A stretch of 5,753 nucleotides of DNA from a virus. The stretch lies in the IMG/VR virus record IMGVR_UViG_3300045988_011356; one strand, given 5' to 3'. The position numbers and the translations under genes were made by a program. Below are positions 1-5,753 of this stretch, piece after piece; the stretch's first letter is position 1, and each line of letters opens with the position of its first letter. The notes beneath the pieces are model-generated. The model was not told the DNA's origin. It ran no database searches and saw only the letters and a program-made list of their open reading frames with translations.

Positions 1-95
1 ATTTTTTTTCGCGTACGTCTATATGCGTAAAGTTTGTGTATCTGATTACGCCGCCTTCTTCCATAATTTTGCTTGCGTATTCTGCTACCTCTTTG
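1..95. repeat. Terminal direct repeat, copy 1 (identical to 5659..5753); overlap of a circular genome with a 5658-nt unit length
   Basis: Base-by-base comparison shows 1..95 (attttttttcgcgtacg...ctacctctttg) equals 5659..5753. The repeat runs to both window ends and lies inside a coding sequence. Confidence 0.95.
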
Positions 96-367
96 CTTGT
101 GTGGTTTTTTACTACAATATCTGCTGCCATTCCTTTGCAATGGTATGAATTAGGCGCTCCGCCTATTTTGCTATTCCAGCTTGGTGTCCTGTATCCGCTG
201 TTAATTGTTACTGGTTCTTTGAAATGGTTTCGGATTGCTTCTAGTGTATCTATCAGTCTGTCTGCAATTAGGAATTCTTCACTTCCGTCTTTGCATTGAA
301 ATTCTTTTGTGCTGAAGTGTTCGCTTAGCTTTTTTGTTTTTGTATTCATTAGCCAAATCATTTTCAT
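1..367 (-). CDS. Zn-dependent peptidoglycan peptidase, Peptidase M15A / M15_3 (VanY/YcbK-like) family, putative endolysin. The window holds the N-terminal 122 codons; the ORF continues across the circular junction to the stop at 5644..5642 (127 aa in total)
   Basis: Hand translation of the minus strand from ATG 367..365 gives MKMIWLMNTKTKKLSEHFSTKEFQCKDGSEEFLIADRLIDTLEAIRNHFKEPVTINSGYRTPSWNSKIGGAPNSYHCKGMAADIVVKNHTSKEVAEYASKIMEEGGVIRYTNFTHIDVREKK, then YRKGV* across the junction. It carries the family pattern SxxFxxxEFxC, INSGYR, N..IGGA..S.H..G.AAD and a final HxD (predicted Zn ligands H76, D83, H115). A GGAAGGA Shine-Dalgarno lies 8 nt upstream of the ATG. The ORF is missing from the track because it has no stop inside the window. 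Confidence 0.9.
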   Translation of the reverse strand, partial: MKMIWLMNTKTKKLSEHFSTKEFQCKDGSEEFLIADRLIDTLEAIRNHFKEPVTINSGYRTPSWNSKIGGAPNSYHCKGMAADIVVKNHTSKEVAEYASKIMEEGGVIRYTNFTHIDVREKK

Positions 368-422: not shown

Positions 423-553
423 GTTTTTTTAGAATTTTAATTGATATGTCAGTAGCCGGCTTTGCTCCTTTGTTTTGAATGGCGCTTTAGCGCCTTGCCG
501 TGCGTAGCGTATGCGGAGCTCGGCTAATCCGTTCCTTGTAAGCGCTGTGCGCG

Positions 554-720
554 TTTTCAACACTTTCAACACTTTCAACAGGTTTTCAACATAAAGTTGC
601 ACAATGATTTTAGTCATTTTGACGAACTTTCAACAATTCAACAAGTTTTCAACAAAACTTTCAACAGTGTTTTTTGCTTTTTATTTACGCTTTATCGTTA
701 AATTTTCGTACTTTTCAACT
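554..720. repeat. Iteron-like array: 8 exact TTCAACA heptamers plus 1 TTCAACT variant, all in the same orientation, in two clusters of four
   Basis: TTCAACA starts at 556, 565, 574 and 585 (spacing 9, 9, 11), and at 629, 637, 648 and 660 (spacing 8, 11, 12). TTCAACT starts at 714. The longer consensus is (A/T)CTTTCAACA, which reads TGTTGAAAG on the coding strand. I found no other exact copy elsewhere in the window by eye. Confidence 0.9.
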
Positions 721-766
721 TTTCTACTGCCTCTACTACTACTCCTACAACAAGTTATATATTATA

Positions 767-798
767 CGGCGCTTGTGAGCTTGCGAACAATAGCGCCG
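767..798. repeat. GC-rich inverted repeat (hairpin in ssDNA)
   Basis: CGGCGCT (767..773) pairs with AGCGCCG (792..798). An inner TTGT/ACAA pairing is possible if 2 nt are bulged. Confidence 0.7.
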
Positions 799-803
799 AA
801 GAG

Positions 804-847
804 CCGCGCGCGCGCGCGTGCGCGCTTCGCGCGCGCGCACGCGCGCG
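804..847. repeat. Alternating (CG)n tract containing a perfect 15-bp palindrome
   Basis: CGCGCGCGTGCGCGC (811..825) is the exact reverse complement of GCGCGCACGCGCGCG (833..847). The loop is ttcgcgc (826..832). The single T819/A839 pair fixes the register. Purine-pyrimidine alternation runs 805..825 and 828..847. Confidence 0.95.
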
Positions 848-902
848 ATAAAGTATAGCTATTTGATAGACTGAATAGTTTGATACATGGAGTCTTTAGA
901 CG

Positions 903-938
903 ACAAAAGCCAAGTACCTTACTTGATAGGTACTTGGC
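903..938 (-). terminator. Rho-independent terminator downstream of VP4
   Basis: Minus strand reads GCCAAGTACCT-atcaagta-AGGTACTTGGC (11-bp stem, 8-nt loop; 938..909) followed directly by TTTTGT. It starts 21 nt after the VP4 stop. There is no T-run on the plus-strand side. Confidence 0.65.
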
Positions 939-958
939 TAGGTGACACTATGACACTG

Positions 959-1978
959 TTAAAGTGTCCCTCTCTTCTTTATCTGCTTCTTTATTACTCT
1001 CTCTTTCGTTTTACACTGTTCTGCAAAGTCTGCGTTTTCGTACTTTAGTCGGTTTTCTGCGATCGCCGCTGCTTGTCTGTTCTGTTTAATTCTCCACAAT
1101 CTTTGTGGGTTTTCAGCTTCCATCATTTTTTCATAATAGCGCGGAATTTGTGCGTGTTTGCCGTTTGTGCATTGGATATAGCCTTGTCTCCAGATCTCTT
1201 TTTTGTGTTCTTGGTAATAGTGATCTCCTAAGCCTGGTTTAAGACTCATGCATGCAAAAGGTTTTTGTTGCCCTAGTTCGTAGTATGCGTTTGCTTTCTG
1301 ACCGTTAATTTCGTACATCTTTTTCGTTACGTACCCTGCAACATATCTATAGGTTTCCGGCACTGCTTGTGCTATCTGTATTTGACCCATTCCCCATAGG
1401 TTTGTAAGCCATTTACTTGTGAAATATCCGTTGTGTTGTATCTTGTATAGGTGCTCTAGGTCTGTTGGTCGCCATCCATACAGTATCATATGATAATGCG
1501 GTCTTGCTGTTTGTTCTCCGTATTCTCCCGCCACGAAATAGCGTAATTTGCCCCTGTAAGCCTTTCTGAGACGTTTTAAGAACTTTTGAACATCAGTATA
1601 CAGCAAAGTTTGGACGCTTTCAGGGCGTTTCTCTCCCGGTTTCCAGACGTATTGTACCTTTCGTATGATTTCACCTGTGTTTACTATCATGCCCGGTACG
1701 TGGTCATCATCATACGTTAATGTGATAAACCATACTTCTTCTCTTGGATAGTCTCGTGCTTCTAATTCTATTCGTGTTGTCCAGTCCTCTCTTTGTCTGA
1801 TTCTACATCCGATGCACTGCCCGCATGGTATTAACATGACATCTTTTCTATACATTACATCTTCATATTTGAGCTGTTTCCCGCTTATTTCAGAAAAGCG
1901 GGAAAGTGTATACACCCTCCCGCTGATGTCTTTATCGTTCGGGTTGTACAGCCTTATTAATGGCTTGTAACAACTCAT
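959..1978 (-). CDS. VP4: Replication initiation protein VP4 (HUH rolling-circle endonuclease, phiX174 gene A analogue)
   Basis: 339-aa ORF. It has the CGQCIGCR zinc-ribbon-like motif, FITLTYDD (RCR motif 1), PHYHMILYG (HUH motif 2) and YRYVAGYVTKK (catalytic Tyr motif 3). Its ATG overlaps the VP2 stop as ATGA. Confidence 0.93.
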   Translation of the reverse strand: MSCYKPLIRLYNPNDKDISGRVYTLSRFSEISGKQLKYEDVMYRKDVMLIPCGQCIGCRIRQREDWTTRIELEARDYPREEVWFITLTYDDDHVPGMIVNTGEIIRKVQYVWKPGEKRPESVQTLLYTDVQKFLKRLRKAYRGKLRYFVAGEYGEQTARPHYHMILYGWRPTDLEHLYKIQHNGYFTSKWLTNLWGMGQIQIAQAVPETYRYVAGYVTKKMYEINGQKANAYYELGQQKPFACMSLKPGLGDHYYQEHKKEIWRQGYIQCTNGKHAQIPRYYEKMMEAENPQRLWRIKQNRQAAAIAENRLKYENADFAEQCKTKERVIKKQIKKRGTL

Positions 1979-2876: not shown

Positions 2877-4523
2877 TTACAGTTTGTACAAGCCAGGTAC
2901 GCTGTATAACGGCATACGTCTTGTGGTTTTGTTTGCTACGCGGATTGCACCGAAAAATTGTGGCTCGTTTTGCACGATAAGTGTGCGTGCAATTTCTGCT
3001 TTTCCTTCTTCCATCCAGTCTTGCGACAGTGTCGGTACGGTTGAATATTTGTCAGCATAATGCCAAAAATCCAGTGTTCCGGTTGCGTTGCTTCGCATTT
3101 TACTGGACACCCGGTTAGGCTTCATGCGATAGTCTGCCCATGCTTCTTGATATCCGAACGTTTCTTCGTCTGTTTCCTTGCCGGTGAGCATGATTTCTTT
3201 CTTTTTTACGGGCTGCTCGCCTAGGTTTGCGAACTGCGGTACGTAATAGTCAAGCCTGTCGGTTCTGCTCCAGAAACGTTCCAAACCTTGCTGATAACTG
3301 CGATTGTGTCGTACACAACATACACCGATGATAAATCCGTGCTCTTCAAAAGACTTTGTAAAGCTGCTTTCGTTGATTGGCGTTACTGACATTGCACCGG
3401 TTTCGCCTATGGGCGTGTCGTTATTTGTCTGCTGTCCGCTTGTTTGCACGATCTGATTGATATTGATGTGGTACCTGCCGCCGCCAAGGTATTCCGGCAC
3501 CTGTACGGTTTTATCGCTGATAACCACGTCCCACAGTGCTTGTACCTGTTCACGGTAACGGCTGCCACCTCTTGCAAGTGCTTCGTAGTACTGCTGTACT
3601 GCTACGGCTTTTCTTAGGTCGTTGATGGTTGCTGCGGTTACAGAACTGAGGTCAGTTCCCATATACCCCGCTTTATTGCTGCCCATTACCGTAGCTGGCT
3701 TTTTTCCGTCTATTGCCACTGTATTAAAAATTTCTCCGTTTGTACTTAATTCCACAGTATACGATTCCGGCTGCTCTTCATTTAGTTTGTCGTCTTTATA
3801 CAGTTTCACTGCCGCGTTTCCTTCCATCGGCAGTGACACAACCGGCCCACGCTGAGGATAAGGCAGACACGATGTGAAGTAGTCATGGAATTTATTTACG
3901 GGAAGGCATCTGCCGCCGGTAATTGCTTCCTTTAGAATTGCTTCAATTTTTTCATCGTTCTTGCTGTCTGCGTATGTTACGCTGCTATCGTCTTTTTTGA
4001 ATACTGCAGCGTTATCTATGTTTTCGTCTCTGAAAAATTCGTTCCAGATCATGACATATGCTCGAATTGGTAAGGCATTCACTGAAAAATTTGCTTCTAT
4101 TTTTGTTGGCACGCCCATATAGTCTAGGATGCTTCCTTCTGCTGGGCTTGGCGTTTTGGTTGCTGTGTTTCCCCCTACGATGTTAATTTGTGGTACATGA
4201 TAGTTTTTGGTCGGCATCCATGGCGTTTCCTCTACTTCTCCCATGAAGTATTTGAAGTTGTCCCATAGAATCCGGTTAGGACAATAGAAATAGTAGAAGT
4301 CAATGAATGCATCGTCAAAAACAGGATACTTCGGAGTTGTCATTCGAATGATTGCTGACGTGTCTACGTTGAAGGTATCGCCCGGTAATACCTCATCAAC
4401 ATAGAATGGAATCAGCTTGCCGGAATCGAATGTTGTTAAAATTGTCTGGTCACGGTTAAACCGTGTACGGCTCGCTTTCATTTCCGGAATCTGGTTAAAG
4501 TGCCGTTCATTGTTTCGATTCAC
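2877..4523 (-). CDS. VP1: Major capsid protein VP1 (phiX174 F analogue, gokushovirus type)
   Basis: 548-aa ORF. The N-terminal pattern HFNQIPE..SRTRFNRDQTILTTFDSGKLIPFYVDEVLPGDTF...FYCPNRILWDNF is characteristic of Microviridae VP1. The start is GTG (4523..4521), 7 nt after AGGAGG, and it overlaps the VP3 stop as GTGA. Confidence 0.96.
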   Translation of the reverse strand: MNRNNERHFNQIPEMKASRTRFNRDQTILTTFDSGKLIPFYVDEVLPGDTFNVDTSAIIRMTTPKYPVFDDAFIDFYYFYCPNRILWDNFKYFMGEVEETPWMPTKNYHVPQINIVGGNTATKTPSPAEGSILDYMGVPTKIEANFSVNALPIRAYVMIWNEFFRDENIDNAAVFKKDDSSVTYADSKNDEKIEAILKEAITGGRCLPVNKFHDYFTSCLPYPQRGPVVSLPMEGNAAVKLYKDDKLNEEQPESYTVELSTNGEIFNTVAIDGKKPATVMGSNKAGYMGTDLSSVTAATINDLRKAVAVQQYYEALARGGSRYREQVQALWDVVISDKTVQVPEYLGGGRYHININQIVQTSGQQTNNDTPIGETGAMSVTPINESSFTKSFEEHGFIIGVCCVRHNRSYQQGLERFWSRTDRLDYYVPQFANLGEQPVKKKEIMLTGKETDEETFGYQEAWADYRMKPNRVSSKMRSNATGTLDFWHYADKYSTVPTLSQDWMEEGKAEIARTLIVQNEPQFFGAIRVANKTTRRMPLYSVPGLYKL

Positions 4524-5641: not shown

Positions 5642-5753
5642 TTACACCCCCTTTCTATATTTTTTTTCGCGTACGTCTATATGCGTAAAGTTTGTGTATC
5701 TGATTACGCCGCCTTCTTCCATAATTTTGCTTGCGTATTCTGCTACCTCTTTG
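5642..5753 (-). CDS. 3' end of the same M15 peptidase gene, containing the true stop codon; 5659..5753 duplicates 1..95
   Basis: Minus strand reads ...THIDVREKKYRKGV-TAA with the stop at 5644..5642. The reading frame is continuous with 1..367 once the 95-nt overlap is collapsed: 367 + 17 nt = 128 codons. Confidence 0.9.
   Translation of the reverse strand, partial: KEVAEYASKIMEEGGVIRYTNFTHIDVREKKYRKGV
5659..5753. repeat. Terminal direct repeat, copy 2 (identical to 1..95)
   Basis: See copy 1. Confidence 0.95.

Follow-up and report, generated by a model that had tools for sequence, protein, structure and literature searches.

In the intergenic region of phage f1, and in plasmids carrying a single-strand origin (sso) and a double-strand origin (dso), hairpin signals lie 5′ of the nick site on the same strand, and in the microviruses phiX174 and G4 the n′/PriA site and the primase origin are likewise hairpins in non-coding DNA. 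For the gokushoviruses, which count among the most numerous phages in the guts of humans and animals, the searchable literature gives no account of non-coding region structure, DnaA boxes, a nick site or replication origin, or a complementary-strand signal, and the papers describing close relatives of the genome studied here make no mention of hairpins or non-coding regions. Here we describe a tract of alternating C and G at positions 804-847 of the IMG/VR virus record IMGVR_UViG_3300045988_011356 (the window, meaning the whole stretch of 5,753 nucleotides (nt) that was analysed), with coordinates given along its + strand. This CG/TG hairpin, hereafter the CG hairpin, is a genuine, conserved, strand-specific element of gut gokushoviruses, situated in what looks like their replication region, where it may mark the single-stranded form of the genome for synthesis of the complementary strand.

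Conserved pairing on one strand

The 44 nt at 804-847 (CCGCGCGCGCGCGCGTGCGCGCTTCGCGCGCGCGCACGCGCGCG) are C or G at 40 positions, the exceptions being T819, T826, T827 and A839, with purine/pyrimidine alternation strict across 805-825 and 828-847. Direct reading bears out the perfect 15-bp CG palindrome with one T:A pair that an earlier note on this DNA, made from the letters alone, had placed here, with 811-825 pairing with 833-847 around a 7-nt loop and T819:A839 as the single T:A pair. This is the longest perfect hairpin stem in the window, followed by stems of 12 bp (908-939) and 10 bp. The minimum-energy fold of the single-stranded DNA (ssDNA) adopts a different register, also adopted by relatives, in which 805-812 pairs with 840-847 and 814-824 with 828-838, giving 19 pairs including a T819·G833 wobble, with a C813/A839 mismatch and a loop at 825-827. 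The predicted ssDNA fold of segment 760-960 is far better than that of shuffled sequences on both strands (z = -7.0 and -7.5; 0/200 shuffles); the GC-rich segment to the left, at 440-560, was considered as another structured signal and rejected, as it folds no better than shuffles (z about -1). No T-run lies 3′ of the CG hairpin on either strand, the + strand running on as ATAAAGTATAG and the minus strand as GCTCTTCGGCG, in agreement with the earlier judgement that this is not a typical terminator. Of the features of an intrinsic terminator it has the G+C-rich stem-loop (19-20 bp) and not the T-run, and a terminator scan flags only 939-908 (-) and 952-968 (+).

All 12 of the GenBank relatives fetched, from human, pig and monkey gut, carry a CG/TG element of 41-46 nt at the homologous place, between a conserved motif (CTACTACTAC..CTACAACAAGTTA) with its A/T stretch and a conserved hairpin abutting the VP4 stop codon. 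Scanning IMG/VR with the flanking motif TACTACNNCTNCAACAAGT yielded 70 microvirus contigs, 48 of which have the CG element, with VP1 identities to the window of 41-98%. A wider scan with CGCGYGCGCGCGYGCGCG returned mostly unrelated phage contigs and one further microvirus only, the gokushovirus L199 (37% VP1 identity), with an analogous CG/CA hairpin in a different non-coding context. The 46 distinct versions of the element span 36-52 nt and consist of two ~19-nt arms and a pyrimidine-rich loop of 3-4 nt (TTT, ATTA, CTT, CTAT, TCTA), with the arm sequences drifting almost solely by transitions and the arm length of ~19 bp, two helical turns, kept in 20 sequence clusters. Its recurrence in ~60 independent assemblies, which come from different laboratories, hosts and countries, shows the element to be genuine; an assembly or amplification artefact, which the earlier note had named as one possible refutation, is thereby ruled out. 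Tracts of (CG)9-11 or CG/TG, flanked by inverted arrays of short repeats, also occur in unrelated small IMG/VR contigs (L150, L154, L192, L204, L225, L234 and others), with L204 showing two copies of TAGACACC, then (CG)11, then three copies of GGTGTCTA; these look like origin or telomere-resolution-type sites of other elements.

That structure rather than sequence is conserved, a check proposed earlier, is evident from an alignment of 33 distinct versions trimmed to 16 nt per arm (526 pair cells). In the window's + orientation 98.9% of the cells are standard pairs, and 11 of the 16 pairs have compensatory substitutions in both arms (CG to TA), values matched by 0/500 shuffles, with registers slid by 2 nt giving 88-94% pairing and merely 3 pairs changed on both sides. 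A stricter control, in which one arm was shuffled with its alternation and composition kept, was applied to 20 cluster representatives, the hairpin centre being taken from the + strand fold and fixed by the loop in nearly all cases. Against 22.5 A·C oppositions expected, 6 were observed, and against 10.6 A-T pairs expected, 27 were observed (0/2000 shuffles). Since A·C is rarer and A-T more frequent than the one-arm shuffles predict, pairing is selected beyond mere alternation.

The same variants reveal which strand folds. G·T makes up 23% of the pair cells on the + strand, appearing as A·C on the coding strand, with 173 G·T oppositions to 10 A·C in the + orientation; A stands opposite T in 64 of 76 cases, though T accounts for only ~28% of pyrimidines. 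TG steps outnumber CA steps by 233 to 55 in the + orientation, and TG exceeds CA on the antisense strand in 48/48 genomes, regardless of the orientation of the neighbouring module described below. Mean ssDNA folding energies are -22.3 kcal/mol for the + strand and -17.0 kcal/mol for the coding strand, with the + strand more stable in 45 of 46 variants and the perfect copy of the window a tie, whilst in L199 the antisense strand folds at -29.4 kcal/mol and the coding strand, with seven A·C mismatches, at -18.8 kcal/mol. Parsimony substitutions among 15 related genomes, a rough control in that sites are saturated and the tree is star-like, show C>T exceeding G>A only 1.1-1.3-fold on the + strand, and the same count, with the same saturation and tree shape, when read for the strand that is deaminated, shows no more than this weak C>T excess and an excess of G<->T on the + strand. 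With a genome-wide bias of 1.1-1.3-fold set against a 17-fold asymmetry in the hairpin, mutation bias alone is insufficient. The hairpin is maintained on one strand only, the + strand of the window, antisense to every gene, and the conserved alternation is explained by hairpin evolution via transition/wobble intermediates.

Genome and origin-like elements beside the hairpin

Judged by its sequence, the window is a circular gut gokushovirus genome of 5,658 nt, with a terminal redundancy of 95 nt (1-95 = 5659-5753) and ~84% identity to its closest GenBank records, which are human, pig and monkey gut gokushoviruses (84% to Human gut gokushovirus KX513868). It has the features used to define the Gokushovirinae: a Phage_F capsid, a Chlamy_scaf scaffold, ORF5/VP5, Rep (VP4) and a circular genome within 4.5-6 kb. 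Every recognisable gene lies on the minus strand (Table 1), the remaining gene content being small open reading frames (ORFs) only. The CG hairpin lies, as previously stated, in non-coding DNA, inside the sole long non-coding region (368-958), which runs from the start of the peptidase M15 gene (367) to the VP4 stop (959). A program-listed ORF of 84 aa at 604-858 (+) crosses the repeats of this region, and the indels of relatives there are not multiples of three. Upstream of the peptidase M15 gene there is a sigma-70-like promoter (TTGACT, 17 nt, TACAAT) at 422-394 (-). Base skew is extreme across the whole window, with 37.8% T and 18.9% A on the + strand and hence an A-rich coding strand. A occupies 34-45% of third codon positions in the window's genes, and phiMH2K is alike, whereas Chp2 and SpV4 are T-rich at third positions.

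Table 1. Features of the window, followed by the homologous hairpins of three isolates
Feature	Position	Strand	Details
Peptidase M15	367..1 plus 5658..5645	-	Name from relatives' annotation; wraps the window ends
DnaA-box-like 9-mer cluster	555..728	+	7 exact TTTCAACA at 555-666; tandem TTTTCAACT 712-720 and TTTTCTACT 720-728
Spacer, trios and A/T stretch	729..766	+	GCCT; CTA CTA CTA CTC CTA CAA CAA; TTATATATTATA 755-766, 12 nt pure A/T
Accessory hairpin CGGCGCT...AGCGCCG	767..798	+	Predicted fold; confined to the window's sub-lineage
5′ arm, CG hairpin	805..824	+	Strict alternation CGCGCGCGCGCGCGTGCGCG; perfect-stem version 811-825; homologous arm in 56 related loci
Loop CTT, CG hairpin (family register)	825..827	+	Alternative 15-bp register: loop 826-832, TTCGCGC
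3′ arm, CG hairpin	828..847	+	CGCGCGCGCGCACGCGCGCG
Partial loop-motif copies	860-869; 877-886	+	TATTTGATAG; AGTTTGATAC; repeat family between CG hairpin and origin-like hairpin
Origin-like hairpin	908..939	+	Perfect 12-bp stem AGCCAAGTACCT/AGGTACTTGGCT; 8-nt loop TACTTGAT
Conserved AGGTGACAC	940..948	+	Directly 3′ of origin-like hairpin, before VP4 stop codon
VP4/Rep	1978-959	-	PF23343; stop codon 959-961
VP2	2838-1975	-	No Pfam match
VP1 capsid	4523-2877	-	PF02305, E = 7e-133
VP3 scaffold	5050-4520	-	PF09675
VP5	5162-4923	-	PF20577
Chp2 (L133) hairpin	2903-2944		CTAGCGTATAACAG-TCTACTTGAT-CTGTTATACGCTAG, then GTGA
SpV4 (L135) hairpin	about 512-545		Loop ATTACTTGTTATA; site TACTTGTT at 524
phiMH2K (L134) hairpin	3296-3335		Loop GGACCCTACTTGTTGTAA

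The loop of the origin-like hairpin carries CTTGATA, which at 922-928 runs from the loop into the first base of the 3′ arm. The phiX174 gene A protein and the Reps of pC194-family plasmids have CTTG/ATA as their nick-site consensus, and by analogy with these a candidate Rep nick would fall between G925 and A926. Among 49 distinct versions the loop is unchanged while the stems covary (AGCCCAGTACC, AGCCAAGTACC, AGCCTAGTACC, GCCCAGTGCC, CAGCCAAGTAG, GTGGGCCTAATCC), with 567 Watson-Crick pairs, 9 G·T and 1 A·C on the + strand. A homologous hairpin is the strongest non-coding hairpin in Chp2 and phiMH2K and among the strongest in SpV4, there with the motif on the coding strand, and GTGA/GTGACACC follows 3′ of the hairpin in Chp2 and in the clade with a T-rich coding strand, as it does here. 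A hairpin with the loop TACTTG(A/T)T, often followed by GTGAC(AC), is conserved across the Gokushovirinae and is a candidate Rep nick site. Two further CTTGATA sites of SpV4, at 1489 and 1642, were set aside, being inside coding sequence and not in hairpins, and an extended similarity between window 945-957 (CACTATGACAC) and the phiX174 origin's right half, which relatives do not conserve, was put down to chance. The partial copies of the loop motif at 860-886, conserved in relatives as ...TTGATAGACTGAATAG.CTGATACATGG, are possibly Rep-binding repeats; the same neighbourhood of L007 and L049 contains another hairpin with a G/C stem, its loop being CTTGATA or CTTGCTA. On the coding strand (939-908), TTTGTCGTCT comes after the origin-like hairpin, which there scores as an intrinsic terminator immediately past VP4 and may have two roles, as origin and as terminator.

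The strand of this motif was surveyed in 80 genomes from a VP1 profile together with the window and the three isolates, accepting stems of ≥8 bp closed by a CTTG[AT]T loop. The motif hairpin lies on the antisense strand in 66 of 67 genomes with an A-rich coding strand and on the coding strand in 9/9 genomes whose coding strand is T-rich or neutral, which puts the motif on the T-rich strand in 75 of 76 genomes (Fisher p = 7e-11, with no correction for phylogeny). Hairpins of both orientations are visibly homologous (CACTCAGC...GCTGAGTG, then GACACC). The CG hairpin, the origin-like hairpin and T-richness therefore all fall on one strand, as expected if that strand is displaced and packaged.

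On the other side of the CG hairpin lies a module resembling a bacterial oriC. Its seven TTTCAACA copies, all on one strand, compare with 0.37 expected, and relatives have perfect DnaA boxes (TTATCCACA or TTTTCCACA) at equivalent sites. The CTA repeats are the complement of DnaA-trios (5′-TAG-3′), with the motif at 729-766 conserved in >70 genomes. A basal unwinding system has been defined as a box with ≤2 mismatches, a spacer of ≤16 nt and ≥3 trios (PMC8287927), and in C. difficile the trio sequence is 5′-CACCTACTACTATTACTACTATGA-3′ (PMC7561715); at the level of sequence, the module fits this definition and resembles the C. difficile trio. Two other identities were rejected for parts of it: a dif/Xer site, with the AT-rich likeness to the Bacillus dif core seen by eye only and the AT stretch variable in relatives, and a pMV158-type nick site (TACTACG/AC), whose G/A positions are not conserved (NN in TACTACNNCTNCAACAAGT), (CTA)n fitting DnaA-trios better.

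A comparison of the window with L005, L021, L098, L026, L089, L052, L127, L115 and L067 finds the ~250-nt module in both orientations between the same flanks, namely the CG hairpin at one end and CGCGCACAGCGCT at the opposite end. Its strand is the antisense one in the window; L005, L021, L098 and the group C genomes have it on the coding strand, in the last case upstream of VP4. These arrangements indicate a DnaA-box/trio module that can invert and move. One of its ends always adjoins the CG hairpin, which, like the CTTGATA hairpin, has a fixed orientation with respect to the genes whichever way the module lies. Between module and CG hairpin the window has the accessory GC hairpin that the earlier note had placed at 767..798; it is predicted as stated, with its occurrence restricted to one sub-lineage (L001, L005, L027, L029, L038, L051, L062, L064, L085, L100) and most other genomes lacking it.

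A 24-nt exact stretch of the module is common to a DnaA-box cluster on a 174-kb contig of a Bacteroidales metagenome-assembled genome (MAG). This cluster (L136, JAZLKG010000035.1, ~650-1125) comprises 18 DnaA-box-like 9-mers in 800 nt (400-1200) between rpiB-like and nadA-like genes, six of them perfect and seven of the TTWTCAACA type, the same variant as in the phage module, and it may be a chromosomal origin and a hint of the host. The host of the window's phage is probably among the Bacteroidales or Clostridia rather than the Enterobacteria. A prophage search by VP1 across 185,579 species genomes found no prophage relatives, and a scan by DNA pattern gave only L136 and L137; a prophage/attP explanation was accordingly rejected. 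L137 (contig CAVKUS010000079.1, 5,739 nt), binned in the MAG 'Bacteroides sp. CAG:545', is a complete group C gokushovirus, a free phage genome that is not integrated.

Possible roles of the CG hairpin

By analogy with the systems compared below, we favour, at a probability of roughly 0.4, the reading that the CG hairpin is an element of the sso or ssi (single-strand initiation) kind, marking the single-stranded form for complementary-strand synthesis, because pairing is selected, G·T but not A·C is tolerated, orientation is fixed and the neighbours are origin-like. The T-rich + strand, once single-stranded, would fold into a CG/TG hairpin of ~19-20 bp with a pyrimidine loop of 3-4 nt. Rolling-circle replication would nick the + strand in the CTTG/ATA loop and displace it, with the CG hairpin, which in the window lies ~60 nt to the 5′ side of the CTTGATA hairpin on the same strand, among the last sequences to be displaced. 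As an extremely stable duplex island it would remain free of single-stranded DNA-binding protein (SSB) in the displaced or packaged circle, and could there offer the host priming machinery a place to enter, or a mark to recognise, for starting the complementary strand. We infer three points of this scheme: displacement or packaging of the + strand, nicking by Rep in the loop, and a function of the hairpin in priming as opposed to packaging or termination.

Several observations weigh against this reading. Close sister lineages are without the CG hairpin, namely group B (L016, L023, L031, L035, L039, L059), most of group C and the clade with a T-rich coding strand, and the hairpin is thus dispensable or replaceable. 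No conserved motif flanks it among relatives, and its distance from the origin-like hairpin varies from 5 nt to >250 nt, with the ~250-nt DnaA-box module intervening between the CG hairpin and the nick-like hairpin in group C and inverted-module genomes. It lacks promoter-like hexamers, unlike f1 or ssoA, and its likeness to the phiX174 n′ and G4 origins is one of hairpin type and setting. The parsimony spectrum that serves as the control for mutation bias is saturated, and phiMH2K is the single exception to the link between composition and hairpin orientation. Furthermore, the Microviridae are conventionally held to package the coding strand, in which case the strand favoured here would never be free ssDNA for long. 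With the favoured strand antisense to all genes, the earlier note's argument from a hairpin in packaged ssDNA needs the non-coding strand to be packaged, a possibility to which several of the present observations point. The note's suggestion of a minus-strand origin or packaging signal suits a position 60-100 nt 5′ of the same-strand CTTGATA hairpin, although the sister lineages without the element speak against a universal need.

A broader proposal, to which we would give slightly less than even odds, is that the CG and CTTGATA hairpins mark the true virion strand, antisense to every gene, with the rolling-circle origin inverted relative to the gene block and the CG hairpin acting as the complementary-strand origin beside a captured oriC-like module that recruits the host initiator, which would make these phages 'negative-sense' microviruses.

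Foremost among the alternatives is a topological element of the double-stranded replicative form (RF), in which negative supercoiling would drive the ~43-bp tract into Z-DNA or a cruciform and the change would buffer superhelical stress, with the potential to tune opening of the AT-rich/DnaA-trio stretch or extrusion of the origin hairpin. The steps classically associated with Z-DNA formation are CG and TG/CA, and the alternation, strict over 21 and 20 nt in the window, is strict in every relative, with the ≥12 bp of strict CG-rich purine-pyrimidine alternation that characterise a Z-DNA tract present in the window and all relatives. Additionally, AT-rich flanks on both sides favour structural transitions, the element is always beside the DnaA-box module, and the window's copy, a perfect palindrome, can extrude. 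However, Z-DNA needs neither the non-alternating central spacer nor the arm complementarity, both of which are conserved, with A-T pairs at 2.5x the expected number, and the lack of transversions is equally expected of a hairpin evolving through wobble intermediates. A cruciform calls for a near-perfect inverted repeat kept on both strands; the window has its perfect 15 bp, but among the 33 variants one of the two hairpins would contain A·C mismatches at ~23% of pairs, and imperfect relatives would extrude poorly. Both structures are strand-symmetric and leave the 173:10 asymmetry unexplained, and we consider a topological role unlikely. Of the earlier idea of Z-DNA or a cruciform in the RF, the Z potential stands at the level of sequence, whilst the cruciform is not what is conserved.

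A late rolling-circle or packaging signal, whether a displaced-strand hairpin aiding termination or re-initiation by Rep or an encapsidation or condensation mark like the f1 packaging hairpin, would have the same strand specificity and the same position 5′ of the CTTGATA hairpin as a priming signal, and an arm of ~19 bp, two helical turns, suits a protein-binding duplex. It is nonetheless quite improbable, with sister lineages that have the same capsid and Rep genes lacking the element, the distance to the origin hairpin ranging from 5 to >250 nt, and phiX-type packaging being coupled to Rep at the procapsid, with no separate signal needed.

Little credence can be given to a by-product of slippage or template switching, a microsatellite-like (CG)n palindrome with little function of its own that would last on account of its self-complementarity and act mainly as a recombination or inversion hotspot at the module border. 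Consistent with it are the constant position of the element at one end of a module that occurs in both orientations, the short inverted GTGCGCG/CGCGCAC repeats at both module borders, and the patchy presence and absence among close relatives. Neutral palindromes of this stability, however, are normally deleted quickly, whereas here length, two arms, loop type and pairing are kept across 41-98% VP1 identity with compensatory changes, and that G·T is tolerated in a strand-specific way implies that a single strand in its folded state is under selection.

The predominance of G·T over A·C is also the classical mark of an RNA-folding strand, and a hairpin in a transcript antisense to the genes, where G·U is fine, could act as a stabiliser, processing site or regulator. 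This is very unlikely, since the nearest upstream promoter-like site on the + strand is as far away as 408-435, the upstream context is wholly different where the module is inverted, no U-run lies 3′ of the hairpin, and the neighbouring hairpin with the same strand signature has a loop of the DNA-nick type; nor is there an Rfam match, with Rfam 15 giving only two chance-level snoRNA matches (21 and 18 bits against gathering scores of 43 and 64). A terminator or insulator of the VP4 operon, or an assembly or amplification artefact, is hardly credible in spite of a G+C-rich stem downstream of VP4 and the error-prone sequencing of GC palindromes, because T-runs are lacking on both strands, the RNA of the coding strand folds less stably and VP4 is already followed by another hairpin of terminator type, complete with a T-tail (939-908, then TTTGTCGTCT), and because the element recurs across independent assemblies.

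Whether or not it acts as a priming signal for the complementary strand, a hairpin of ~45 nt whose evolution tells which strand folds is a testable handle, and the CG and CTTGATA hairpins together point to the position and polarity of rolling-circle initiation. They raise the possibility of a whole gut clade packaging the non-coding strand. The oriC-like DnaA module would bear on host prediction (Bacteroidales or Clostridia), on the use of host initiators by ssDNA phages and on how synthetic gokushovirus genomes are designed. Polymerases and assemblers have difficulty with CG palindromes, and knowing these to be genuine avoids their being trimmed as artefacts.

Comparison with known systems

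The protelomerase sites of N15, PY54 and phiKO2 (telRL) share with the CG hairpin a palindrome with an alternating CGCG core. They differ in that the window has no protelomerase gene, its gene content being VP1, VP2, VP3, VP4, VP5, peptidase M15 and small ORFs only, is circular and lacks long flanking inverted repeats, with the palindromes of its relatives imperfect. Z-forming d(CG)n·d(CG)n and d(TG)n·d(CA)n tracts are matched by 20-21 bp of strict alternation of CG/TG steps, enough at the sequence level for a B-to-Z transition; such tracts have no conserved central spacer, arm complementarity, compensatory A-T pairs or strand asymmetry.

The oriV of RSF1010/IncQ plasmids, with its iterons, GC- and AT-rich segments and the sites ssiA and ssiB, is similar in combining initiator repeats and an AT-rich unwinding stretch with a strand-specific hairpin beside them. 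The repeats are RepC iterons there and DnaA-box/trio-like here, the gokushovirus has one hairpin only and no plasmid-type primase gene, and its CG hairpin is not always on the AT-rich side of the module. The n′/PriA site of phiX174 and the G4 primase origin are, like the CG hairpin, stable non-coding hairpins in microviruses that would stay duplex in SSB-coated ssDNA, making the CG hairpin a candidate signal for conversion of ssDNA to RF. In contrast to the CG hairpin, they are mixed-sequence hairpins rather than alternating CG, lie far from the gene A origin and belong to phages of enterobacterial hosts.

The minus-origin hairpins B and C of f1/M13, situated 5′ of the nick hairpin D, and the plasmid origins ssoA, ssoU, ssoT and ssoW differ from the CG hairpin in several respects, with the CG hairpin lacking a -35/-10 mimic, its stem nearly pure CG/TG and the element dispensable in sister lineages. 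The RSB and the CS-6 (TAGCGT/A) loop of ssoA are absent from the CG hairpin, whose loops are CTT, TTT, CTAT, TCTA and ATTA, with TAGCG occurring only in the lineage-restricted accessory hairpin at 767-798. In structure, however, the CG hairpin agrees with ssoA in being an orientation-specific structure upstream of a dso, if the CTTGATA hairpin is taken as that dso, and it shares with the f1/M13 and plasmid origins a hairpin on one strand, upstream of the nick site, that would be exposed last.

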